Virus record (IMG/VR): IMGVR_UViG_640753059_000001
Source: a virus
Lineage: Duplodnaviria; Caudoviricetes
Strand: one strand, 5' to 3'
Length of the DNA: 64,000 nt
In this document: piece by piece, positions 3,535 to 56,158 of the stretch
How the letters are laid out: each line of letters starts with the position of its first letter
Numbering within the stretch: position 1 is the first letter of the stretch
The notes under the pieces: model-generated
The model's database searches: none
What the model saw: the letters and a program-made list of their open reading frames with translations, nothing else
Told to the model about the DNA's origin: nothing
Program-made: the position numbers and the translations under genes

Positions 3535-5462
3535 TGGCCACCATAGAGGAGTTCCTTGTCTCGCTCGGCTATGCCGTCCGCGAGAGCGAGGTCAACGCCT
3601 TTGAGGGGACGATCAAGAAGGCTGAATCGCTTGTCCTGAAACTCGGCGCGGCGCTTAATTCCTTTGAACGGAAGGCGGCGGCACTCTTCGTTGGGGCTAC
3701 GGACGAACTCGACCGGCTGAACTTCGCAGCCCAGCGCACCGGCTCATCCGTCGATGAGCTTCGTGCCCTCACCTACGCCATGCAGCAGTTGGGCATGAGC
3801 GGGCGTGGGGCTGAGGCGCTGGTGGGTGGGTTCGCCCAACGCCTGCGGCAGTTTCCCGCCATGGCGAGCCTCCTTCAGGGGCTCGGGGTTCAAGCCTCGG
3901 TCAATGGACGGGCCCGCGACCAGGCCGTCGTGATGCGGGATGCCGTAAAGGCGCTGAACAAGATCGAGTATTACCCCTTGGCAGCGCGCTATGCCGAGGT
4001 GCTTGGAATTCCGGAGGAGGATTACAACGTCCTCCGGCAGAACGGCGACAAGATCGACCGCCTCGCAGATGAACAGAAGGCCCTCTTTGATCGCTACGGC
4101 GTCAACGGCAATCAGGCGGGGGAAAGCTCCACCCTCCTGAGGATCGGCTGGCGCCAGACGCTCATGACGTTGGACGCCCTGTTCTCCAAGATCGCCTTGG
4201 AGGTCGGCCCGGCTATCACCCCAGTCATTGAGCGGCTGAAAGAGTGGATCGACAGGAACCAGGACCGCATTGTCGCCGTGTGCCTCGCGCTCGTGGCTGT
4301 TGCCGGCGACCTTGCCAATGGCTTGCAGGCATTCGCTGAGAAGCTTTTTGGATCGGGGGATGGCTTCCTCAACTTCCTTGAGTGGGCCACGGGATCAAAC
4401 GGCATCATCCGCGTGGCGGAGGTGTTCGCGGGAACGTGGGTTGCGACAACCGTCGCTGCCTTCCTCGGTCCTATCGGCATCATCATTGCCGGCCTACTTG
4501 GTATCGCGGCCCTGCTCATGCCGGGCAAGGCGAATGCATCTGAGGCGCGGCATCAGGGCGGCGGTGGAAATGCTGCCTCTGGCGGGGCGGCCGCTGGCGG
4601 TGCTCGTGGGGCCTCCCACGGCGGGTCTGGATCGCGGGCCCCCTCGGACAAGGGTAAGGGCGCAAGTGGGTCGTGGTGGGGTTCCTTGGGAAAGTCTCGG
4701 TCACGCGCAGCCGGAGGCGCTGGTGCGGCGGGGGCATCTGAGCCTTTCACCCCGACGACAAGCACGGATTCCGTCCCGGCTCTGGCCGATGTCCGAAAGC
4801 AGTTCGCGGAGGAGCTAAACGACCCTGCCGTCGCGGCGCGCCTCGCTGCCTATGCCGAGGCGGAAGTGGGGAGCCAAGGCGCGGAAGCCCAGCAAGCGTT
4901 TATCGAGAGCATTATGAACCGGGCTGCGGCGCGGGGGCAGAGTATCGCTCAGGTGCTATCTAGTAGCAGCAGCTATTTTCCAAGGAGCACGCATAATCGC
5001 GCCGCCCAGCTTATGAACAACCCCCGGATCGCCGCAAAGTACCAGGGGATCGTCGCGGCAGTTCTGGGGGGCTCTAACATCTCACTGTTTGCCACCGGAA
5101 ACGCCTCTGACGGCGTTGGTTTCGGGGGCGGGCCGCGCACGAAAAGCTATGGCGGGGAAGACTTCGGCATTGAAAAGCCCGACATGCCGTGGGTCAAGAG
5201 AATGCAGGCGATCACACGGAAGTCGGAGCCGCCGGGGCCAATGCCGGCGATTCCTCCTGATTTTCAGAATATCGACCCAAACACCATGTTCGAGGCGCCC
5301 CCCTTGGGAGCCACGGAAACCACATCCTCTCTCAACGCAGATCAGGTCTCAGAGATTGTGGTGCATGGCGACCCGGACCCGTCCCGGACGGCTGCGGAAG
5401 TCGGGGCCGCACAGAGCCGGATCAATGGCGACTTCGTCGAACAAGCTTCAAAGGCTGCGTGA
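3534..5462 (+). CDS. Tape measure protein 2 (paralog) with putative lysozyme-fold/SleB-like hydrolase domain
   Basis: Shares N- and C-terminal motifs with TMP1; 'AEVGSQGAEAQQAFIESIMNRAAARG' after Gly-rich linker. Confidence 0.7.
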   Translation: MATIEEFLVSLGYAVRESEVNAFEGTIKKAESLVLKLGAALNSFERKAAALFVGATDELDRLNFAAQRTGSSVDELRALTYAMQQLGMSGRGAEALVGGFAQRLRQFPAMASLLQGLGVQASVNGRARDQAVVMRDAVKALNKIEYYPLAARYAEVLGIPEEDYNVLRQNGDKIDRLADEQKALFDRYGVNGNQAGESSTLLRIGWRQTLMTLDALFSKIALEVGPAITPVIERLKEWIDRNQDRIVAVCLALVAVAGDLANGLQAFAEKLFGSGDGFLNFLEWATGSNGIIRVAEVFAGTWVATTVAAFLGPIGIIIAGLLGIAALLMPGKANASEARHQGGGGNAASGGAAAGGARGASHGGSGSRAPSDKGKGASGSWWGSLGKSRSRAAGGAGAAGASEPFTPTTSTDSVPALADVRKQFAEELNDPAVAARLAAYAEAEVGSQGAEAQQAFIESIMNRAAARGQSIAQVLSSSSSYFPRSTHNRAAQLMNNPRIAAKYQGIVAAVLGGSNISLFATGNASDGVGFGGGPRTKSYGGEDFGIEKPDMPWVKRMQAITRKSEPPGPMPAIPPDFQNIDPNTMFEAPPLGATETTSSLNADQVSEIVVHGDPDPSRTAAEVGAAQSRINGDFVEQASKAA

Positions 5463-36920: not shown

Positions 36921-38342
36921 TCAGCTCCTCACTTCAGGTTTCATGAAATCCTTCGTCGAGAGACCGGCAATCCACGCCTGACCTTCGAGCGCTGACGTGA
37001 TGGTGGGTGGAACCCCGATGGCGAACTCTCGCCCTGTCCCGCAGCGGACCCTCACGAAGCGGGCTTCTCCAACATCAGGAAGCTTCACTTCTACGAGCGT
37101 TCCGATTTCCGGGTCCCCGTCTTCGTCGATTGTTTTTGCGTCAAGATCCTGGAGCATCTTCGCCCAGCCGATGATTTCGACGCCGGCCTGGCGCTGCTCC
37201 ATATTTTCATGCCGGAGGATATCTGCCGGGCCCACAGAGCCCTTGTCTTCGATCCATTGGGCCGGGATCCTTGTCCCGTGCCATGCATGGCATCCCCAGC
37301 CATCTGAATACCTTACCGCTGGCCCCGTTTCACAATGCAGGCGCCGCTCTCCGTCGAAGTGCACTTCGCGAGGGCGGTCACTCACGAAGCAGATCCCGTC
37401 CCAAGGAGCCCACCACCCGACGCTTTTCGAAAGTCGAGCCCATTCGAGCAGCAGGGCGATATTCTCGGGCTCATACCGAACCCCGATTTCATGCCCGAAC
37501 AGATAGAACGCCTCCCATGCACACCAATGTTGGGATCCCCAACGATTGGTGAGAAAATAGGATCGTAGGCCGTCGAGCTGGCTGTCGAGCTGGCTGCGGA
37601 GCTGGCTGTAGAGCTGGCTGTCGAGCTGGCTGCCGAGCTGGCTGTAGAGCTGGCTGCCGAGCTGGCTGCGGAGCTGGCTGCGGAGCTGGCCGCCGAGCTG
37701 GCTGTAGAGCTGGCTGTCGAGCTGGCTGCCGAGCTGGCTGTAGAGCTGGCTGCCGAGCTGGCTGCCGAGCTGGCTGCCGAGCTGGCTGTAGAGCTGGCTG
37801 CCGAGCTGGCTGCCGAGCTGGCTGCCGAGCTGGCTGCGGAGCTGGCCGTCGAGCTGGCTGTAGAGCTGGCTGCCGAGCTGGCTGTAGAGCTGGCTGCCGA
37901 GCTGGCTGCCGAGCTGGCTGCCGAGCTGGCTGCGGAGCTGGCCGTCGAGCTGGCTGTAGAGCTGGCTGCCGAGCTGGCTGTAGAGCTGGCTGCCGAGCTG
38001 GCTGCGGAGCTGGCTGCGGAGCTGGCCGCCGAGCTGGCTGTAGAGCTGGCTGCCGAGCTGGCTGCGGAGCTGGCTGCCGAGCTGGCTGCCGAGCTGGCTG
38101 CCGAGCTGGCTGTCCTTGAGCATCAGAAAGACGAAGTTCACGGCCAGCTCGCACATCGCCGGAGATGAAAAGTGCAGGATCATAGGGGCCGGCTTGCCCA
38201 GCCGCTTGTAGAAACCCCTGATAACCTCATCCCCAGTCTCGAAATCAGCCGGGTCACAACAGAGGCCGACTTGCCGCCACTCTTCCCGGAACTCCTCCAG
38301 CCTGCGTTCCCGCGCGGCGGTGAGCTTGTTGATCTTCGCCAT
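36921..38342 (-). CDS. DUF6745-like protein with 45 SQLx tetrapeptide repeats
   Basis: 'GWWAPW...RLHCETGPAVRYSDGW...WHG...N.EQR' C-terminal domain. Confidence 0.8.
   Translation of the reverse strand: MAKINKLTAARERRLEEFREEWRQVGLCCDPADFETGDEVIRGFYKRLGKPAPMILHFSSPAMCELAVNFVFLMLKDSQLGSQLGSQLGSQLRSQLGSQLYSQLGGQLRSQLRSQLGSQLYSQLGSQLYSQLDGQLRSQLGSQLGSQLGSQLYSQLGSQLYSQLDGQLRSQLGSQLGSQLGSQLYSQLGSQLGSQLGSQLYSQLGSQLDSQLYSQLGGQLRSQLRSQLGSQLYSQLGSQLDSQLYSQLRSQLDSQLDGLRSYFLTNRWGSQHWCAWEAFYLFGHEIGVRYEPENIALLLEWARLSKSVGWWAPWDGICFVSDRPREVHFDGERRLHCETGPAVRYSDGWGCHAWHGTRIPAQWIEDKGSVGPADILRHENMEQRQAGVEIIGWAKMLQDLDAKTIDEDGDPEIGTLVEVKLPDVGEARFVRVRCGTGREFAIGVPPTITSALEGQAWIAGLSTKDFMKPEVRS
37572..38111 (-). repeat. 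12-bp coding tandem repeat, 45 units, (A/G)GC-CAG-CTC-NNC
   Basis: Counted from translation: (S/G)QL(G/R/Y/D) x45. Confidence 0.95.
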
Positions 38343-44970: not shown

Positions 44971-45182
44971 ACCGATCGAAACGCCCCGGTCCCCGCCACC
45001 TCTGCCCGGTCTGCGGCAGCGCCGCCGTGCACCCTCGCGGCCGTGACTTCGCCTGCGGCAGATGCGGCCACGCGGCCCGCAAGTTCCCACTCTCCACTGA
45101 TCCTGTCCCGGCCATTGAGGAATGGGACAGCCGCCCTCGCTGCGCCGGTCAGGTGCTGCCGGTCCGGAGCAACGACGAATGA
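44967..45182 (+). CDS. Small Zn-finger protein
   Basis: CPVC...CGRC; ATGA coupling on both sides. Confidence 0.55.
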   Translation: MNRSKRPGPRHLCPVCGSAAVHPRGRDFACGRCGHAARKFPLSTDPVPAIEEWDSRPRCAGQVLPVRSNDE

Positions 45183-46918
45183 AAACGCCCTTCCTGCTCG
45201 ACAACCGCATCACGGTCGTCCTGTTCGCCGGCATGGGCGGCGGGTGCGATGGGCTGGAGGAGGCCGGCTTCCACGTTCATGTTGCGATCAACCATGACCC
45301 GGTGGCTGTGGCGGTTCACGAGCGCCGGCACCCTCACACCAAGCATCTACGTTGTGACGTGTTCGAAGCGGACCCACGGGAGGTTTGCCGCGGGCGCGGC
45401 GTGCGCGCGCTCCACGCATCTCCCGACTGCACCCACTTTTCGGTGGCCAAGGGCAGCAAGCCCGTCTCGTCGAGGCGCCGGTCTCTCGCATGGGTGATCT
45501 GTCGGTGGGCGGGCACGGTGCGCCCTGAGACGATCACCCTGGAGAACGTGCAGGAGATCACCACCTGGTGTCCGCTGATCGCGAAGCGCGACCCCGCGAC
45601 CGGCCGGGTGCTTCGGCTGGATGGCACGGTGGCGGCCAAGGGCGAGCGGGTGCCGGTGCAGGAGCAATGGCTCATCCCGGATCCGAAGCACAAGGGGCGC
45701 ATCTGGCGCGCCTGGCTGAAGCACCTGCGTGGGCTCGGCTACAGCTTTGAACACCGCGTGCTGGTCTGCGCTGACTATGGCGTGCCCACGATCCGGAAGC
45801 GGCTCTTCGGTGTCGCCCAGGCCGACGGCCGACCGATCGTCTGGCCGGCGCGCACCCACGCGCCGCGCAAGGATGCCAAGCGGCTGGGCCTGAAGCCTTG
45901 GGTCGGCGCCCACACCATCATCGACTGGTCGCTGCCGGTGAAGAGCATCTTCGACCGGGCCAAGGCCCTGGCGGATGCCAGCCACCGGCGGATCGCGCAT
46001 GGCGTCGTTCGGCACGTCCTGGAGGCGGTCCAACCGTTCATCGTGCCGATTACCCACACGCAGGGCGGCAACAGCGCCCGCTCCACCTCCGAGCCTCTGT
46101 GCACCATCACCACGGCCAAGGGCGGCGAGAACATGGTGGCAGTCCCCACCCTGATCCAGAGCGGCTACGGCGAGCGGGAGGGACAGGCGCCGCGCGTCCT
46201 GGACCTGATGGAGCCTGCCGCCACGCAGGTGGGTGGCAGCAAGGCGGCGCTGGTTGCGGCGTTCCTCGCTCAACACAACGCAGGCCCCCGGCCCGGGGCT
46301 CCGGCGCGCGCTGCGATAGAGCCCGTCTCGACGATCACCACCACTGGCGCGCAGCAGTCCATCGCCGCCATCAGCCTCATGCGCCAGTTCGGGACCGGCC
46401 TTTCACGCGACGCCCGAGAGCCAGTGCCAACCATCACGGTAGAGGGGCAGACCAAGACCGGCTTGGTGGCGGCCACGCTGGGCGAGATGCGCGGGCGAAG
46501 CCGTGGTGGGCGGGACGTCCGCGAGCCGCTCGCGGCGGTCTCGGCCAAAAGCCACGCCCACCTGATCTTGCCCTTCCTTCAGCACTACTACAGTAACGGG
46601 AAGACCGATGACGACGTGCAGAGCCCGCTGGGCGCGCTCACCAGCAAGGCTCGATACGGCATCGTCGAGGTCAAGGTGCGCGGCGAGACCTTCATCATCG
46701 ACGACATCGGCACACGCATGCTGGAGCCGGAGGAGGGGGCCGCAGCCCACGGCTTCAAGCCCGGCGCCCTCCCAGACGAGGTCACCGTCGACGGCGAGAC
46801 CCGCCGCCTGACGAAGACCCAGAAATATCACCTCGTCGGCAACAGCGTGCCGCCGCGAATGATCCAGTTGCTCGCCGAATGCAACGTGCGGCGTGCCTTA
46901 GCAGAGGCCGCAGAGTGA
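45179..46918 (+). CDS. C5-cytosine DNA methyltransferase
   Basis: 'LFAGMGG', 'SPDC', 'ENV', 'RKR', 'GNSV'. Confidence 0.9.
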   Translation: MKTPFLLDNRITVVLFAGMGGGCDGLEEAGFHVHVAINHDPVAVAVHERRHPHTKHLRCDVFEADPREVCRGRGVRALHASPDCTHFSVAKGSKPVSSRRRSLAWVICRWAGTVRPETITLENVQEITTWCPLIAKRDPATGRVLRLDGTVAAKGERVPVQEQWLIPDPKHKGRIWRAWLKHLRGLGYSFEHRVLVCADYGVPTIRKRLFGVAQADGRPIVWPARTHAPRKDAKRLGLKPWVGAHTIIDWSLPVKSIFDRAKALADASHRRIAHGVVRHVLEAVQPFIVPITHTQGGNSARSTSEPLCTITTAKGGENMVAVPTLIQSGYGEREGQAPRVLDLMEPAATQVGGSKAALVAAFLAQHNAGPRPGAPARAAIEPVSTITTTGAQQSIAAISLMRQFGTGLSRDAREPVPTITVEGQTKTGLVAATLGEMRGRSRGGRDVREPLAAVSAKSHAHLILPFLQHYYSNGKTDDDVQSPLGALTSKARYGIVEVKVRGETFIIDDIGTRMLEPEEGAAAHGFKPGALPDEVTVDGETRRLTKTQKYHLVGNSVPPRMIQLLAECNVRRALAEAAE

Positions 46919-46952
46919 TATTAAAATGGAAATTACACGATATACAATATTC

Positions 46953-47597
46953 TTAAAAAGACAGCGGGCGACGCTCAATGAACGTCGTCGCTCTGATTTT
47001 ATCGACGGGGGTGCCGCTCTCAAGGAGCCGTATTCTTTTCAAGATGCTGTCTGCAATATCAAAGTAAGGGTTAAATGCATCCGGGGGGCCGTTTCGTGCC
47101 CACTGAGGATTTGTGTAGTATCCTGCTATTGCAACCAAATCCATTACCCAAGAGCCGACGGCATCTCCGTCCCCACCAAGAAGAGTATCGTTTTGCAGGA
47201 CTATAAGCTCTGGGGCAGATGTGCTTTCTATGAGGGAGCGGAAGCGCTCCCTTCTGGCTTCAGGGCGCCCGTCTTCCTGATCTCCGATGGCTTCGACGAG
47301 CTGTCGGAACAAGCGCCTGAGTTGAATGTCATAGTTCTTAAGACGTTCCACAGCATTTATGTTTTCGGAAGTGAGAATTTGCCTCTGCGCGGCGAGCCAT
47401 GCAATGCCGCCGGCTGCTATGGTCGCCGCCGCGCCAATGATTGCTCCCCAGAACCCAAGCCAGTCGCTGCGGCCATCCGCTTTGATCCAGTTAACTGGGG
47501 TGTCCCCCGCGACAAACGCTATCGAGACGCCAAGGATACCTCCGAAAATCAAGCAGGCTGCGCCCAGCACGAGCGAGTTTCGATTCTCCGTATTCAT
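46953..47597 (-). CDS. Membrane moron protein (2 TM)
   Basis: Hydrophobic N-terminal helices; lower GC; opposite strand. Confidence 0.6.
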   Translation of the reverse strand: MNTENRNSLVLGAACLIFGGILGVSIAFVAGDTPVNWIKADGRSDWLGFWGAIIGAAATIAAGGIAWLAAQRQILTSENINAVERLKNYDIQLRRLFRQLVEAIGDQEDGRPEARRERFRSLIESTSAPELIVLQNDTLLGGDGDAVGSWVMDLVAIAGYYTNPQWARNGPPDAFNPYFDIADSILKRIRLLESGTPVDKIRATTFIERRPLSF

Positions 47598-48670: not shown

Positions 48671-49034
48671 CATCGGTGCCGCGCTGGCTCTCCTGCAGTG
48701 CGCCTTCCCTGCTGCCCCGATGGACGCTGTCACGGCCAAGGCGAACGTTCGGGCATATGCACTGGCACTCGAGGGCATTCCTGCGTTTGCCTTGGACGAA
48801 GCGGCTCGGCGGATTCTGAGGGGCGAGGCTGGGCTGAAGCACGCCTTCATGCCGACCCCGCCGCAATTGCGGGATATCGCCAATGAGGCTTCCCGTCCGG
48901 CGCGCTGGCACGCGGTGCAACTGCGGCGGCTCCTTGATGCAGAGGTAGAGCGAGAGATCTCCGAGGAGGAGCGCGCCAGGGTGGCGGAACGGTTCCGCGC
49001 GATCGTCTGGCCGGAAGCGGAGGAGCGCCGGTGA
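48438..49034 (+). CDS. Replication P-like helicase loader (putative)
   Basis: 'Y..AL.G.P.FA...A...FMPTPPQLR'; follows initiator. Confidence 0.6.
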   Translation: MSQELIQHREDQSRQRLRALLDPLTASPPWLIGCVKALGEGLRPKIPKAFALTTEQRATVMEMSSRLAQHLAPASPADIGAALALLQCAFPAAPMDAVTAKANVRAYALALEGIPAFALDEAARRILRGEAGLKHAFMPTPPQLRDIANEASRPARWHAVQLRRLLDAEVEREISEEERARVAERFRAIVWPEAEERR

Positions 49035-49321
49035 CTGGCAGCATTTTCGAGCGCTTCGGCTGGCACGTCGACGCTGATGGGATCATCCGCCACGACGATC
49101 GGCCGTGCTCCTGGGAGCGCGGTGACGAACTGGCCGGCCGGCACCTGGATCGGAGGCGGTCCTATGCCGTCATCGAGGGAGCAATCTGCGAACTCGCATC
49201 TTGGTCGTATGCCTGCAGCGGTTGCTACGAGGGAATGTACGGCCACACCGAGCGTGGATGCGGCTGTTCCGAATGCGGGTTCACCGGCCGGCGGCGCAAC
49301 CGCGAGTTCGTGCCGGTCTGA
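49031..49321 (+). CDS. Zn-finger hypothetical protein
   Basis: CSGC...GCSECG. Confidence 0.55.
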   Translation: MTGSIFERFGWHVDADGIIRHDDRPCSWERGDELAGRHLDRRRSYAVIEGAICELASWSYACSGCYEGMYGHTERGCGCSECGFTGRRRNREFVPV

Positions 49322-49386
49322 ACCACCACGCGCCGAGGCCAGCGACACCCCGGCGGCATCCACACCACACGACCAATGGGGCTCCA

Positions 49387-50043
49387 ATGGCAGGGCGTAA
49401 GCGTAAGGCAGGGCGGCGGACGGCGGACGGTCGGTTAGCGAAGAAGCCGCGCCCGCAGCGCGTCAGGGACATCACCGACGTGGCAACCAGCCAGCCGCAC
49501 CGCAGCTGGCTCAAGGAAGGCCAGCGCCGCGATCAGCGCGCCGAGAGCACCCTTGGCAGGATGTTCCTCGCCGACCTGATCACGGAGCCCGAGTGCTGGG
49601 CGGGTGAGCGGCTCCGCTCCATCATCCGGGAATTCCATGTCGTGATCGCCGCACCGATCACAGCGTCAACGGCGGCAATCATGGTCGCCGAGGGGATGGA
49701 GATCCCGGCCGAGGCCGACCACCTGGCGGCGGAGCGCCCGGAAACCGAGGAAGAGAAACGGGATCGGGTTCTCGCGCAGCACGCTGGCGCCATGGCGGTC
49801 CTCGATCGGCTCGAATGGGGGCGGCAAATCACCAGTGAACTGGACGCCCTGCTTATGCGGGACGCCGAGCCCGAGCACCTCCGCCTGGTGAAGGCGGGCC
49901 TGCACGCCCTCGCCGCCTTCTGGCGCATGGCCGAGCCTCCGGAAAACCCCAACGATCGCGAGGTCAAGGTGAAGGGGGTCCGCTATGGCGAGGAGGCCGA
50001 ATGGCCTCACGAAGAGAAGGTGGTGAGCATCGTCTATAAGTAA
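49387..50043 (+). CDS. Putative late-gene activator/antiterminator (Q position)
   Basis: Last early gene before terminase; basic N-terminus, 'LGRM.L...IT....AG', 'GL..LA.FW'. Confidence 0.55.
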   Translation: MAGRKRKAGRRTADGRLAKKPRPQRVRDITDVATSQPHRSWLKEGQRRDQRAESTLGRMFLADLITEPECWAGERLRSIIREFHVVIAAPITASTAAIMVAEGMEIPAEADHLAAERPETEEEKRDRVLAQHAGAMAVLDRLEWGRQITSELDALLMRDAEPEHLRLVKAGLHALAAFWRMAEPPENPNDREVKVKGVRYGEEAEWPHEEKVVSIVYK

Positions 50044-50135
50044 AATTTCGGCTCCCTGCGCCATAGGCGCAAATCAGCCATGGTGTGCCCGAAATGCAGG
50101 GTGAAGTGTTGCGCCCTGATTTGGCATAGCAGTTT

Positions 50136-50950
50136 ACGGCTCCGGCCCCTTCGGGCAAGTCGTTCCAAGTCCTACCGGCCGGATACGTCGGACTTGGTAG
50201 AAGCGGGGATCGGTCACAAACGCGTAGCTTGCCGGGGGCGAACAGAAGCCCCGTAGAAATTCCCGGCACCCATTCGCGCTTCGGCGCGCAACCAGGTGCG
50301 GACCGACCAGCAGGCCTCCGGGCGCAAAGGCGGCGAGCACGGCGCTAAAGGCAAGCATCTGGCCCGCGCCGGCTGAGAGGCCGGCAACTGTGATCCCTGA
50401 GCGAAAGCTCGTGTTGAAGCAAGGCGCGCGATAGTGCCGAGTGGAGCGGGTGAGTAGGTGGCGCGGCACGGCCCCGCGATGGACCGCCGGGAAGCTACGG
50501 CGACAGGGTGAGGACGGCGCAAGCCGGTGGCCCAGGCCTTTGCCTCTCCCAAGTTTCGCGCTTCGGCGCGCACGAGTTCGACGCGGCAGCTTGTTGCTGT
50601 GAAGGTTGGGGCGGCCCGGCCGTCCCGCGTCGATCAGCTTCGAGAGGGCAAGCCAGCTCGCGCCTTGTGTGCCCCGGTAGGAAACGGCTTCCGTTCGAAG
50701 GGGAAAGCAACGATTGCCCAGCGGTGCGTAGGCGTTCGGCAAGCCGGCGCTTTGGCATTCGCTCTAGGGACCGCACAACGCGGGGATGGCGCCCCGCCCG
50801 CAGGGCGGCTGGGGTCGCGCCCGGCCTCTCACGAAAGCAACTCTCCGCCACGGCAGGCTTGAAGTCCGTGGCACGTCCACTGCCGCGGGGCTAGCCTCCG
50901 GGGCCCGTGTTCATCATCCGCCCGCCCGGTTCTGCCGAGGCGGGTTTTTC
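50136..50950 (+). ncRNA. Candidate large structured ncRNA or ncRNA array
   Basis: No credible ORF; dense stems with GNRA and UUCG tetraloops, long-range closing helices, 3' terminator. Confidence 0.7.
50921..50950 (+). terminator. Intrinsic terminator upstream of terS
   Basis: CCCGCC-CGGT-tct-GCCG-A-GGCGGG-TTTTT. Confidence 0.8.
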
Positions 50951-50987
50951 ATTGGGCGAGTGAGCCCTTATTGAGGCGGGCTCAGGC

Positions 50988-51605
50988 GTGACCGAGAAGC
51001 GAAAGACGGATTGGGAGGCGATCGAGCGCGAATACCGCGCGGGCCAGCATTCCATCCGCGAAATTGCCAAGAAACACGGCGTCAGCGATACCGCCATTCG
51101 CAAGGAGGCCAAGGCCAAGGGCTGGGAACGGGCCCTTGCCGATCAGGTCCGCAAGGCAGTTCGCGAGAAGCTGGTTCGCAGTGATGGTTCGCAGTCAGGT
51201 TCGCACCCTCAACGTGCGAACGACCGGGAGATCATCGAAGGGGCTTCGCTCCTCGGTTTCGAGGTCGTCCAGTCGCACCGGCGCGATATCTCGCAGCTCA
51301 CCGCCATCTCCAACATCCTCGCCACGAGGCTCGCAGCGGTCCTGAACAGCGACCCTGTGGAAGGCCGTTGCCTTGGTGACAAGGAAAGCCCCGGCGACCT
51401 TCTGGAGAAGCTGACGCGGGTTCGTGCGCGGCTGATCCCCCTGGAGCGGCAGGCCTACAACCTTGACGCCGAGGAGCGCGACCCCAGCGACCCTGATAGC
51501 CATGACGGTTCCGCAATCGACCTTCTCGCTCGCCGCCTCGATCGCATCGCTTCCCGTAGCGGAGAGGGCCCGGGTTCTGGCGGGACTGACGAAGAAGCAG
51601 GCTGA
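50988..51605 (+). CDS. terS: Terminase small subunit
   Basis: 'DWEAIEREYRAG..SIREIAKKHGVSDTAIRK.A...GW.R'. Confidence 0.8.
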   Translation: MTEKRKTDWEAIEREYRAGQHSIREIAKKHGVSDTAIRKEAKAKGWERALADQVRKAVREKLVRSDGSQSGSHPQRANDREIIEGASLLGFEVVQSHRRDISQLTAISNILATRLAAVLNSDPVEGRCLGDKESPGDLLEKLTRVRARLIPLERQAYNLDAEERDPSDPDSHDGSAIDLLARRLDRIASRSGEGPGSGGTDEEAG

Positions 51606-52853: not shown

Positions 52854-54287
52854 ATGGCATCCTGGTGGCCCTTCGGCCGGCGTTCGCAAACCAAGGCGAG
52901 CGCCGCCGGCTCGGTGATTTCGGCGTGGAATGTCGGCCAGCCCGTCTGGACTGATCGCCGCTACGACCGGATCGCCGATGAGGCCTATGTCAGGAACGCG
53001 GTCGCGCACCGCTGCGTGAAGATGATCGCCTCCGCCGCCGCGACGATCCCCTGGCTCCTGGCGGACACCAAGGGGCGGGAGGTGGAGGAAAGCCCCCTTC
53101 TCGACCTGCTCAGGCGCCCGGCGCCCGGCATCGGCGGGCATTCGCTGTTCGAGGCGTTCTACGCCTACCTGCTGCTCGCCGGGAACACCTACCTCGAGGC
53201 GGTCGCTCCCGCCGACGGCAAACCGCCGCGCGAGCTTTGGACGCTCCGCCCTGATCGGACACGGGTGATCCCCGGCGCCTATGGCCGCCCGGAGGCCTAC
53301 GAATACGAGGCCAACGGCCAGAAGATGACGTGGCAGGTGGACCCGCTGACCGGAGAGGGCCCGATCCTGCATCTGAAGGAGTTCCACCCGATCAACGACT
53401 GGTATGGCCTGTCGCGGGTGGACCCGGCCGCCTATGCGGTGGACCGCCATAACGCCGCGAGCGCCCACAACATGGCGCTCCTGCAGAACGGCGCCCGGCC
53501 GAGCGGTGCGCTGATCTTCAAGCCGGTGGTGGTGAACGGCTCGGCACAGTCCGCGCCCAAGGAGGCGGTGGAGGCGGCCGAGGCGAGGCTGAAGGAGCGA
53601 CATGGCGGCTTCGAGAACGCCGGCCGGCCCATGGTGCTGGGCGGGAACGTAGACTGGCAGGAAATGGGGATCACGCCCAAGGACATGGACTTCGGCGCCG
53701 GCAAGGACGATGCGGCGCGGGACATCTGCACCGCCTTTGGGGTGCCCCACATCCTGATCGTGCCGGGGGCGAGCACCTACAACAACGTCCGCGAGGCAAC
53801 TTTGGGCCTCTACGAGGACACGGTCCTGCCCCTGGTGGACAAGGCCGTGGACGCGCTCGATGCCTGGCTCACCCCGCGGTTCGACGACCGCCTGCGTCTC
53901 GGCGTGGACCTCGACGAGGTGCCGGCGCTGGAGCCTCGGCGAGAGTCGAAGCGGAAGGCGACAATCGAACTGTTTGAGAAGCGCCTCATCACCCGCGACG
54001 AGGCGCGGGACGCGCTGCAATACGAGCCGCTCCCAGACGCCACGCAGTTCGACCCCGACGCGCAAGTGCTCTCTGCCCTCGTTGACGCCTACACGAAGGA
54101 CGCGCTGCCGATCGAGATGCTCTGGCGCTATGCCAGATCCATCGGCCTGAGCGTCCAGACGGACGAGGAGCTTCTCGCCGCCCTCACGGCTGAGCGCGAT
54201 CTGCGCGCCGCCGAGGAAGCCGGCGCGTCCTTGGGCGACACCGGGCAACCGGCGGCCGATACCCAGGCCGATCCGGCCGCTCCCTGA
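52854..54287 (+). CDS. HK97-type portal protein
   Basis: 'YVRNAVAHRCV...NGARPSG...ICTAFGVP'. Confidence 0.9.
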   Translation: MASWWPFGRRSQTKASAAGSVISAWNVGQPVWTDRRYDRIADEAYVRNAVAHRCVKMIASAAATIPWLLADTKGREVEESPLLDLLRRPAPGIGGHSLFEAFYAYLLLAGNTYLEAVAPADGKPPRELWTLRPDRTRVIPGAYGRPEAYEYEANGQKMTWQVDPLTGEGPILHLKEFHPINDWYGLSRVDPAAYAVDRHNAASAHNMALLQNGARPSGALIFKPVVVNGSAQSAPKEAVEAAEARLKERHGGFENAGRPMVLGGNVDWQEMGITPKDMDFGAGKDDAARDICTAFGVPHILIVPGASTYNNVREATLGLYEDTVLPLVDKAVDALDAWLTPRFDDRLRLGVDLDEVPALEPRRESKRKATIELFEKRLITRDEARDALQYEPLPDATQFDPDAQVLSALVDAYTKDALPIEMLWRYARSIGLSVQTDEELLAALTAERDLRAAEEAGASLGDTGQPAADTQADPAAP

Positions 54288-56158
54288 TGGCGAAGCCGAC
54301 CAAGAAGTACCTGCTCGAGCTGGTGGCGCAGCACGGGCCCGAGATCGCAAAGGCGTTCAAGGCATCCATCACGTCGATCAAGGGCTCGGCGCAGGTCGGC
54401 GCCCTGACCACGATGTTGGAGAAGGGAGACATCAACGGCGCCCTGCTGGCCATCGGTCTCGATCCGGCGGCGTTCCGGAAGCTGGACCAGTCGATTTCCG
54501 ATGCCTTTGAGGATGGGGGTGGGAAGACGGCCCAGACCATCCCGCCGGTGAAAACCCCGGACGGGCTGCGCATGGTGGTGCAGTTCAATGCCCGGAACGA
54601 CCGCGCCGAGCAGTGGCTGAAGGACCAATCCTCGACGTTGATCCGCGAGATCATTGAAGACCAGCGGCAGGTGATCCGGGCCGTTCTCGCCGACGGCATG
54701 GCCCGCGGGCTTAACCCGCGCGACGTTGCCCTGGACCTGGTCGGGCGTCTCGACCCCGTGACGAGGACGCGCCAGGGCGGCGTGATCGGGCTGACCTCAC
54801 AGCAACTGGATTATGTCCAGCGCTACCGGTCCGAACTGCTTTCCGGAGATCCGGCCCAGCTTCGCAAAGCGCTGGCGCGGGTGCGGCGCGACCGCAAGTT
54901 CGACGGTGCGATCCGCAAGGCCATCGCCGCCGGCAAGCCGATCGACGCCGCCGCGGCGGAGAAGATGGTCGGCCGATATTCCGACCGGCTGCTGCTCCTG
55001 CGCGGCGAGACCATCGGCCGGACCGAGGCAATGACGGCCCTGCACCAGTCGCAGGAGGAGGCATACCAGCAGGCGATCGACAAGGGAGCCCTGCAGAGCA
55101 ACCACGTCCGCTATTTCTGGCGAACGGCGGCGGACGAGCGGGTGCGCCACTCGCACGCGATGATCCCCGGCATGAACGAGAAGGGGGCACCGCACGGCAC
55201 GCCGTTCTCGTCCCCGCTGGGCCCGATCCGCTTTCCCGGCGATCCCAACGCCTCTGCGGCCAACAGGATCGGATGCCGCTGCTGGCGCGAGGCAAAGGTT
55301 GACTTCCTCGCCCAGGCCGTGGAGGCAGAGCAGAAGCCGAAGCCAGCACCTAAGCCGAAGGCGCCGCCCAAACCGAAGAAGCCGCTGCCACCGGAACCGG
55401 TCCTGCTGCCTCAGCGCTATGGCCCGGACGGGGCGGCGTGGCCCCGTGTGCCGTCGGAACTTGCAGATCGCGTCGCTGATGAACTGCTCACTCCGACCCA
55501 TCCGGCTTGGCGCAAGGAGATCGAGACCATCCTCAAGAGTGCGCCCGCGCCGTACAAGCGGCTTTCGATTGGGCAGGCTGGGCTCATCAACTGGTACACC
55601 GGCAGTGGCTACCGCCGGCTGAACAAGGATCTGCGGGAAGGGACGGGGAATTGGCTCACCCCGATGATCTCCGATGCGCTGAATGGCGCGCTGGACGCCG
55701 TCACCCGGAAGGCAACCGGCCTCGTGACCAGAGGTCTCAACGTCTACAGCGATGCCGAAATCACGTCGACCTATGCTGTCGGCGCCGCTGTCGAGTTCCC
55801 GGCCTTCACGTCGACGGGCCGAGGGTTTTCCTTCGGTGGCAATGTCCGGATGATCATCGATGGATCGTCCGGCGTGGACGTGAAGCCCCTGTCTCGCTTT
55901 CGTAATGAGAACGAGGTGTTGTTCAAGGCGGGCACGCGGTTTATCGTGACCGGCATGGCAAAGCGCGGGAACGTCTACGAGATCACGCTCAAGGAGGTCG
56001 CGGACGACAAAAAGTCCGACGATCGCGTCATGCTGGGCGGAGGGTTCTCGGACGAGGCGAAGCGGATCTTCGATCAGTGGCGTGAGCCGCAATCGGACGC
56101 GGAACACCGACTGGCGGACAAGATGCAGTCTGGTGGCGCCGGGCGGCGCATTCGCTGA
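54287..56158 (+). CDS. MuF/SPP1-gp7 minor head protein fused to ADP-ribosyltransferase toxin domain
   Basis: 'IGRTE...WRTAADERVRHSH...GCRC', Pro/Lys linker, then 'YTG..Y..LN..LR...RG...FTST...ENEVLF'. Confidence 0.85.
   Translation: MAKPTKKYLLELVAQHGPEIAKAFKASITSIKGSAQVGALTTMLEKGDINGALLAIGLDPAAFRKLDQSISDAFEDGGGKTAQTIPPVKTPDGLRMVVQFNARNDRAEQWLKDQSSTLIREIIEDQRQVIRAVLADGMARGLNPRDVALDLVGRLDPVTRTRQGGVIGLTSQQLDYVQRYRSELLSGDPAQLRKALARVRRDRKFDGAIRKAIAAGKPIDAAAAEKMVGRYSDRLLLLRGETIGRTEAMTALHQSQEEAYQQAIDKGALQSNHVRYFWRTAADERVRHSHAMIPGMNEKGAPHGTPFSSPLGPIRFPGDPNASAANRIGCRCWREAKVDFLAQAVEAEQKPKPAPKPKAPPKPKKPLPPEPVLLPQRYGPDGAAWPRVPSELADRVADELLTPTHPAWRKEIETILKSAPAPYKRLSIGQAGLINWYTGSGYRRLNKDLREGTGNWLTPMISDALNGALDAVTRKATGLVTRGLNVYSDAEITSTYAVGAAVEFPAFTSTGRGFSFGGNVRMIIDGSSGVDVKPLSRFRNENEVLFKAGTRFIVTGMAKRGNVYEITLKEVADDKKSDDRVMLGGGFSDEAKRIFDQWREPQSDAEHRLADKMQSGGAGRRIR

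Follow-up and report, generated by a model that had tools for sequence, protein, structure and literature searches.

Exchangeable putative RNA modules form a mosaic where relatives of a Xanthobacter prophage carry tRNA genes

The window analyzed here is a 64,000-nt stretch of DNA (G000:C1:4056496-4120495, in a genome with replicons of 5,308,934 bp and 316,164 bp) that is part of a prophage of Xanthobacter, belonging to a temperate phage family of that genus; the same genome has a second prophage immediately before the window. We focused on a gap of 0.94 kb (50044-50987) between an open reading frame (ORF) ending at 50043 and the start of terS (50988-51605, + strand, phrog_1206), the gene that opens the packaging/head operon and is followed by terL, portal, and MuF-like head protein genes. 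Upstream of the gap lie a gene for a DUF1376 replication-type protein and ORFs without an assigned role. Comparison with related loci indicates that the gap is a patchwork of small exchangeable RNA modules, not a single giant folded RNA, and the best reading of it is an array derived from a phage tRNA island. The modules are listed in Table 1.

The gap contains no credible ORF, as the initial annotation of this DNA had noticed. Codon-position GC periodicity is absent (maximum minus minimum 0.05-0.09 inside the gap vs 0.2-0.4 in the flanking genes), and alignment with homologs revealed indels of 7 and 4 nt, therefore no reading frame is maintained. A 202-aa minus-strand ORF (50134-50742) was considered as a gene and rejected, as it shows no periodicity, has no Pfam match and its frame is broken by indels. 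ARAGORN found no tRNA in the window, and no RF00005 match was obtained at E<=10 in 49900-51100. Similarly, cmscan against Rfam recovered no family at gathering score in the whole window, nor at E<=10 in 49900-51100 except for a terminator-like piece; this only sub-threshold alignment placed RcsR1 on the terminal hairpin, with 18.8 bits vs a gathering score of 60. The earlier impression that the RNA could not be assigned to a known family is thus confirmed by the Rfam search. Moreover, blastn of the gap against INPHARED phages gave no match, and our literature search found no published description of these Xanthobacter elements. The intrinsic terminator proposed at the end of the array is indeed there, with its GC-rich hairpin and U-run.

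The same region had been described as very highly structured. Results showed that all the helices listed for it are present in the sequence and that the description is not borne out by energy, as the 815-nt stretch 50136-50950 folds at the level of dinucleotide shuffles. The minimum free energy of the + strand is -397.4 kcal/mol vs -396.7 +/- 7.7 in shuffles (z = -0.09), and the minus strand gives z = +1.13. Module by module, z values are +0.15 for M0, -0.29 for H1 with M1, -0.10 for M2a, +0.62 for M2b, and +1.15 for M3, and only H2 with J (z = -1.96) and the 3' end with the terminator (z = -2.29) depart from shuffles. As a G+C content of 68% makes such helices by chance, energy is uninformative and comparison must decide.

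We compared the gap by BLAST with 60 related genomes and with its own genome (related loci are given below by L numbers). The blocks 50273-50388, 50389-50634, and 50635-50855 were found apart or in other combinations in relatives. In G009 (L002), the upstream gene and the gap as far as 50389 are shared at 93-98%, with divergence beyond. In G021 (L004), a tRNA-Pro is followed by 50273-50387 (92%) fused directly to 50635-50855 (90%), and this direct junction identifies 50388-50634 as an insertion/deletion module. In G011 (L003), 50358-50835 is shared at 77% and terS at 83%. The homology breakpoint at 50388/50389 is sharp, with five independent matches ending or starting at 50387-50391; in particular, M1 is common to L002, L004, L005, and L006, and all these matches end at 50387-50389. 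M2a is found in L015, L003, L024, and partly L025, and is absent in L007, while M2b is conserved in six homologous loci and stands directly 5' of a tRNA-Met in L007. The metagenome contig L126 contains a homolog of M0 that keeps the stem and has another loop, and G009 (L002) a copy 98% identical to M0. As a separate observation on M1, its part 50333-50384 matches, at 81-83%, a piece of a 545-aa chromosomal ORF whose orthologs occur in several genomes of the genus (L012, L019, G000:C1:3923978), a resemblance that may be due to chance or to a captured gene fragment.

A second array is present in the adjacent prophage (G000:C1:4043870-4044350; L015 1380-1963), after a DUF6362 gene, with the order tRNA fragments, H-like hairpin, a 96% copy of 50389-50586 (C1:4043887-4044084), H, J, a miniature D2, and tRNA-Trp. 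The 96% identity amid otherwise unrelated flanks suggests a recent exchange between the co-resident prophages. We also considered dispersed repeats of the repetitive extragenic palindrome or miniature inverted-repeat transposable element type and rejected them because the copy number is too low: blastn of the gap against the whole genome gives only one further locus, that of the neighboring prophage.

Table 1. Features of the array and its flanks, in window coordinates.
Feature	Position	Strand	Description
Upstream ORF	49387-50043	+	218 aa if the start is as in the G009 homolog; ORF list gives 49201-50043; Arg-rich N-terminus
5' flank of array	50044-50135	+	No recognisable promoter
Module M0	50136-50272	+	Hairpin CCAAGUCC/GGACUUGG (50165-50172 / 50190-50197); GCCGGG...CCCGGC domain ending ACCCA
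Hairpin H1	50273-50290 (stem 50275-50279 / 50284-50288)	+	CGCGC-UUCG-GCGCG
Module M1	50291-50388	+	Ends in hairpin GCCGGCU-GAGA-GGCCGGC (50368-50385)
Module M2a	50389-50466	+	Hairpin GAGC-GAAA-GCUC (50399-50410)
Module M2b	50467-50553	+	Core of ~87 nt: CGGC-GCAA-GCCG (50515-50526), variable hairpin after GGUGG
Hairpin H2	50554-50572 (stem 50557-50561 / 50566-50570)	+	CGCGC-UUCG-GCGCG
Domain J	50573-50637	+	Helix UCGACGCGG (50578-50586) / CCGCGUCGA (50625-50633), 38-nt two-hairpin interior, linker UCAG
Domain D2 (= M3)	50638-50835	+	Helix UUCGAGAGGG (50639-50648) / CCUCUCACGAA (50825-50835), one A-A mismatch, 176-nt multibranch interior
Module M4	50836-50917	+	GCCACGG/CCGUGGC (50847-50853 / 50866-50872); contains CUUGAAGUCCGUGGCAC stretch
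Intrinsic terminator	50918-50950 (hairpin 50918-50944, then UUUUUC)	+	38 nt before terS

We then asked which of the helices are maintained among homologs. Hairpin H occurs twice in the window vs 0.14 expected by chance, and four times in the whole genome, always in the two prophage arrays. Its loop varies between UUCG, UACG, CUCG, and UCCG among homologs, and a YNMG-type tetraloop is kept on the + strand only. In L004, L026, and L027, H lies two bases after the CCA end of a tRNA, and M0 stands where that tRNA precedes H.

Strong covariation among homologs was found for the closing helix of a three-way junction, TCGACGCGG/CCGCGTCGA, which frames domain J and had been singled out from the window alone. 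In each of the 15 units examined, 6-8 nt separate H from the start of this helix, whose partner strand follows 38-152 nt downstream, and about 11 helix sequences are represented, for example UCGACGUG/CACGUCGA (L003), UUUCGAGCGCAUG/CGUGUGCUCGAAA (L027), UUAGCUAGCG/CGCUGGCUAA (L028), and UUUCGAGAUG/CGUCUCGAAA (L126). G-U pairs are present in L006, L027, L028, and L053. Units were aligned by covariance model, as the variable interiors defeat MAFFT; L027, L010, and L011 were left out of the pair count because the model misplaced their 3' strand. In the resulting 11-unit alignment, six of the nine pairs show two-sided changes and pairing holds in 99% of cells, values that none of 500 shuffles reached, and slid controls gave 12-49% pairing. 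In L126 (oriented 4381-4511), the helix at the J position, UAGACGGC/GCCGUCUA, is closed around a further hairpin and a tRNA gene (41.8 bits with Rfam; anticodon not named by ARAGORN).

The closing helix of D2 also covaries. The domain frame measures 197 nt (50639-50835), and its pattern is a GCAG/UCAG linker, then UUCGAGAG(R)G pairing with C(Y)CUCUCNCGAA. The helix is found around interiors of 176 nt in the window, 170 nt in L003, 100 nt in L009, 81 nt in L145, and 16 nt in L015; it is kept around unrelated interiors in L003, L015, L009, and L145, and around a homologous M3 interior in L004. Elsewhere it is replaced in place by another complementary pair, UUUGAUCUGCGG/UCGCAGAUCAAA in L028 and UCUGAGGCCG/CGGCCUCAGA in L006. 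The M3 interior is common only to L003 (77%) and L004 (90%) and is almost invariant, therefore its internal helices, including UUGUGUG/CGCACAA (50665-50671 / 50772-50778), are barely tested by comparison. In L024, an ORF for an endonuclease with HNH_3 and AP2 domains (1901-2395, - strand) is inserted right after the D2 5' strand CAGUUUCGAGAC; we found no matching 3' strand downstream of this ORF.

For the other helices, comparison gave a mixed picture. The GNRA hairpin CGGC-GCAA-GCCG of M2b is supported, its loop varying between GCAA, GAAA, and GCGA. One hairpin of M2b covaries; over M2b as a whole, two-sided changes are seen at 2 pairs, and 20 of 500 shuffles reach the same; as most of its pairs are invariant, covariation supports it only weakly. 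The GCCACGG/CCGTGGC helix of M4 is present in the window and is not consistently conserved, because the CUUGAAGUCCGUGGCAC stretch, common to L026 and L053 and found with variation in L009 and L024, pairs in L026 and L053 with a downstream partner. The covariation anticipated among homologs was thus obtained for the closing helices of J and D2, weakly for M2b, and not for a domain of 225 nt proposed at 50313-50538. That domain spans the module and recombination boundary at 50388/50389 and is not conserved, because L003, L004, and L015 keep its 3' part and lack its 5' strand; the pseudoknots proposed within it cross the same boundary and find no comparative support. The claim that GNRA/UUCG loops and G-U pairs read correctly on the + strand did hold, as the loop classes are kept on this strand and alifold favors it (M3 energy of -86.6 on + vs -78.9 on -). 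Judged from sequence comparison, H, the J helix, and the D2 closing helix behave like selected + strand RNA.

The relatives also indicate in which setting these modules occur. tRNAs were found by ARAGORN and Rfam in the equivalent non-coding stretch of many of them, on the same strand as terS: Thr in L003, L006, L024, and L145, Pro in L004, Gly in L005, Met in L007, Trp plus tRNA fragments in L015, Leu, Ser, Ser, and Thr in L026, Thr and Ser in L027, and three tRNAs in L126. These stretches measure 0.9 to almost 3 kb and carry 1-4 tRNA genes each, the array of the window being a tRNA-free member. The H-J covariance model matches 11 of the 32 species genomes of the genus, with 1-2 copies each, and in an order-wide pattern scan of 400 genomes all true instances belonged to the genus. 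A few relatives (L024-L028, L053, L090, L126, and L145) come from viral and metagenome collections. Upstream of more distant terS relatives, with 34-41% identity, both H and tRNAs are missing. A scan of the genome collection with the M2b pattern returned 18 matches, of which two Xanthobacter loci are real and the others chance occurrences in coding DNA. Among at least 120 metagenome matches to the H pattern, about five are true relatives, and the remaining ones are mostly chance palindromes in coding genes plus two unrelated 5'-leader families. One of these leaders, in L059, L063, L072, L087, L088, L092, L129, L141, L146, L158, L161, and L168, has the order TATATA-like box, CCCCGCGAAAACCGACC, H-like hairpin, second hairpin, and ORF starting MALPLMQ, and looks like a conserved 5' untranslated region family. 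Another recurring non-phage setting of an H-like hairpin (L057, L066, L123, L140, and L144) reads ...GGTACAGAGGGATTC + hairpin + GAGTTGCTTTTCACCC....

A location of this kind recalls GOLLD and ROOL, which occur in prophages near tRNA islands, the GOLLD linker being able to carry tRNAs (10.1101/2024.12.08.627333; PMC5737381). The array is likewise non-coding and prophage-borne, sits in a tRNA-island slot and has, over the whole gap, a similar length scale, and its homologs with tRNAs place it close to tRNA genes in prophages as expected for these RNAs. We considered that 50389-50835 (M2-H2-J-D2, ~450 nt) or the whole gap could be one large functional RNA of a new class analogous to GOLLD and ROOL. 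In agreement with this possibility, the window, L003, L015, and L024 have their modules in the common order M2-H-J-D2, and L009 and L145 in the order H-J-D2, L003 keeps 50358-50835 as a single block with 77% identity, and the context matches the one documented for GOLLD and ROOL (10.1101/2024.12.08.627333; PMC5737381). On the contrary, neither the GOLLD covariance model (conserved 3' half, multistem junctions, pseudoknots) nor that of ROOL (six multistem junctions, three pseudoknots) matches the window, with no hit even at E<=10 in 49900-51100, or any of 20 related loci, where Rfam at gathering score recovered tRNAs only. As these defining models fail, the array is not a member of either family. 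It also differs from them in having no conserved global architecture or pseudoknots, in modules that are separable and shuffled among relatives, and in a distribution that, as far as found, covers one genus and a few metagenome contigs. In addition, we found no conserved long-range or inter-module pairing; M1 joins D2 without M2-H-J in L004, M2b stands by itself in L007, and L009, L026, L053, and L145 carry H-J but lack M2. What J and D2 enclose is unrelated from one member to the next, and the folding energy equals that of shuffles. Given separable modules and the lack of conserved pairing between them, a single large RNA is improbable, and the recurring order M2-H-J-D2 keeps this reading alive at that low level. 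The initial annotation had proposed a large non-coding RNA or a set of them. The idea of a set survives, with no Rfam match, + strand loops and G-U pairs, and compensatory changes in several helices; that of a single ornate RNA of ~800 nt does not, considering that the blocks are separable, the energy is at shuffle level and the long-range domain linking them is not conserved.

The absence of tRNAs in the window raises another explanation, namely that the array is a functionless remnant of a former tRNA island, whose tRNAs were lost by recombination between repeated H and linker sequences and whose spacers persist because divergence is recent. Zero tRNAs here vs 1-4 in relatives, the tRNA fragments beside the second array (L015), the A-A mismatch that the D2 closing helix has in the window only, and the narrow distribution with close known homologs would all fit. 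Several observations speak against it: structure is under selection in the family, as compensatory changes and retained loop classes show, divergence is lower in the array than at neighboring synonymous sites (23% from L003 in the alignable part vs 36% at four-fold sites of the adjacent terS, n = 102), and the non-tRNA modules recur in many arrays with intact tRNAs. A role at the DNA level was also weighed, either as pac/cos region for the adjacent terminase or as inverted-repeat recombination sites that move cassettes. The array adjoins terS, its closing helices are inverted repeats flanking swappable segments, and the L024 array is interrupted by the ORF for the HNH-AP2 endonuclease; however, G-U pairs, never needed in DNA repeats, the loop classes kept on one strand only and the fixed position of H after tRNA 3' ends point to RNA, and the repeats are not multicopy, being confined to two loci. 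Considering covariation, strand-specific features, and low copy number, both explanations are the less likely ones, the remnant being rather unlikely and a DNA-level role very much so. A further idea, that of an RNA anti-CRISPR mimicking a solitary repeat of clustered regularly interspaced short palindromic repeats (CRISPR), was rejected, as no CRISPR array turned up when the whole genome was scanned crudely for repeat-spacer patterns.

The position of the array makes it also a leader of the packaging operon. Between Q and the late genes, lambdoid phages have a terminated pR'-tR' leader and, in the case of Stx phages, also tRNA genes. Our main rival explanation is that the array acts in cis on the late operon: a core made of H and the bases of the J and D2 helices would recruit or modify RNA polymerase, alone or with a phage factor, for read-through of the 50918-50950 terminator into terS, with a promoter upstream and with tRNAs and other payloads merely riding in the leader. 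It could coexist with processing of the transcript. Evidence in agreement includes an orientation shared with the late genes, a place immediately before terS, the intrinsic terminator at 38 nt from that gene, the terminator-like hairpin and U-run just before H in L007 and L010, conservation at helix bases and linkers with variable interiors, and the established lambdoid precedent. Moreover, in L003, an X. flavus prophage, a NusG-like gene (88-741; phrog_6386 'transcription antiterminator'; PF02357 NusG E = 2e-12, with KOW) lies immediately before the array.

The genes in front of the other arrays argue in the opposite direction. In the window, L002, L004, L005, L008, and L024, the array is preceded by a family of proteins of ~180-218 aa with a basic N-terminus; the product of the window's upstream ORF is 96% identical to the L002 protein and a distant relative of the ~180-195-aa proteins preceding the arrays in L004, L005, L008, and L024. 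This product has no Pfam or PHROG match, the Atlas returns hypothetical phage proteins only, and no antiterminator domain is recognisable in it. In other relatives, the gene before the array encodes a DnaB-like helicase (L009) or a DUF6362 protein (L015). As these genes vary among relatives, the label 'late regulator' initially given to the upstream ORF is unproven for the window. In addition, L003 has no obvious terminator before terS, and promoter-like hexamers recognized by eye just upstream of H in L145 and L053 suggest independent units. Compared with the lambdoid late leader (the pR'-tR' 6S transcript) or the HK022 put RNA, the array shares the position from regulator to late operon, the end at a terminator and, in one relative, a NusG-like gene upstream; it differs in being ~0.9 kb vs ~70-200 nt long, in showing no sequence relationship, in the upstream protein of the window, not recognisable as Q, N, or NusG, and in its antitermination being only putative. 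Altogether, we consider antitermination in cis rather unlikely.

Three observations on the genes around the array are given here for completeness. The MuF-like head morphogenesis protein (54287-56158, + strand, phrog_3517) carries a C-terminal ADP-ribosyltransferase domain (PF03496, PF01129) and may be a virion-delivered ADP-ribosyltransferase effector. The G+C content dips to 0.48-0.52 at 46900-47350 vs ~0.66 elsewhere, between a C-5 cytosine methyltransferase gene (45122-46918) and the DUF1376 replication-type gene. A 20-mer, CGAGCTGGCTGCGGAGCTGG, is repeated six times at 45-90-nt spacing around position 37585 of the window (C1:4094080), on an ORF of the minus strand (36921-38342); it is a tandem repeat in coding sequence and no CRISPR array.

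Taken together, the reading that we favor, and to which we give an even chance, is that the gap encodes a co-transcribed and processed array of small RNAs. The slot, which follows the early/replication genes, precedes the packaging operon and has the orientation of the late genes, would be the tRNA island of this Xanthobacter temperate phage family, from which the tRNA genes are gone here, leaving a string of probably independently folding modules (M0, H1-M1, M2a/M2b, H2-J, D2/M3, M4, and the terminator). The major modules would be closed domains, each with a payload that varies freely inside a conserved basal helix, and would be parted by short, predicted single-stranded linkers of the AG-UUUCG type and by the very stable YNMG hairpin H; the same frames seem to flank tRNAs in relatives. 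The array would be transcribed as a single precursor, which host RNases (E, III, or P) would cut at the linkers and basal helices into small stable RNAs, and any function would belong to the released RNAs. AG-UUUCG linkers beside helices resemble RNase E-type sites, and the leader-trailer stems of rRNA and tRNA precursors are substrates of RNases III, E, and P. The helices of the array are similar to such stems in that they pair at long range the flanks of an RNA payload, which is a tRNA in L126, and differ from them in having only 8-13 bp and in that their cleavage is putative. The phage T4 tRNA cluster with its two small stable RNAs is polycistronic, co-transcribed, and released by host RNases. 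The likeness that we propose is that of a phage RNA operon with tRNA and non-tRNA RNAs; the present array differs in being tRNA-free, in belonging to a temperate alphaproteobacterial phage, in its framing helices with variable payloads, and in its putative processing.

Several points weigh against the processed array. The J alignment is fitted to its model and owes most of its two-sided changes to L028 and L003. Both the J and the D2 helices were selected in each sequence separately by a helix-finding program, and the per-unit shuffle p-values of the J helix are only 0.003-0.18. M2b and the M3 interior are nearly invariant and have few close homologs, so that their structures are barely tested, and the folding energy of most modules stays at shuffle level. 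Moreover, no sigma-70-like promoter was recognized in 49000-51600, the candidate processing sites are predicted from their motif, and, as the phage of the window has no tRNA, its array could be a decaying remnant.

What appears new here are well supported framing helices, within the known kind of tRNA-island-associated phage non-coding RNAs. To our knowledge, phage tRNA islands and the RNAs adjacent to them, such as GOLLD and ROOL, are an open problem, and we know of nobody who has established the role of those RNAs. A bolder view, which we put forward as speculative and rather doubtful, is that the conserved frames are an 'RNA cassette holder' (H plus basal helix, with AG-UUUCG...UCGAA-AGC borders) taking swapped payloads, or else that M2-H-J-D2 is a third class of large tRNA-island RNA beside GOLLD and ROOL. 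The payloads of such a holder would be tRNAs, tRNA-like pieces, and decoy or regulatory RNAs, and the holder would be a reusable scaffold for their processing or presentation; if this were true, it would represent an undescribed type of modular RNA operon. The locus is compact and amenable to study and belongs to a cultivable alphaproteobacterium with two related prophages, where arrays mix tRNA and non-tRNA modules within the same helical frames and one natural variant, that of the window, is tRNA-free. If the modules were not expressed, the array would simply be a decaying tRNA island. If they are expressed and processed, they would be new phage RNA motifs and a test bed for the packaging, processing, and exchange of small RNAs.

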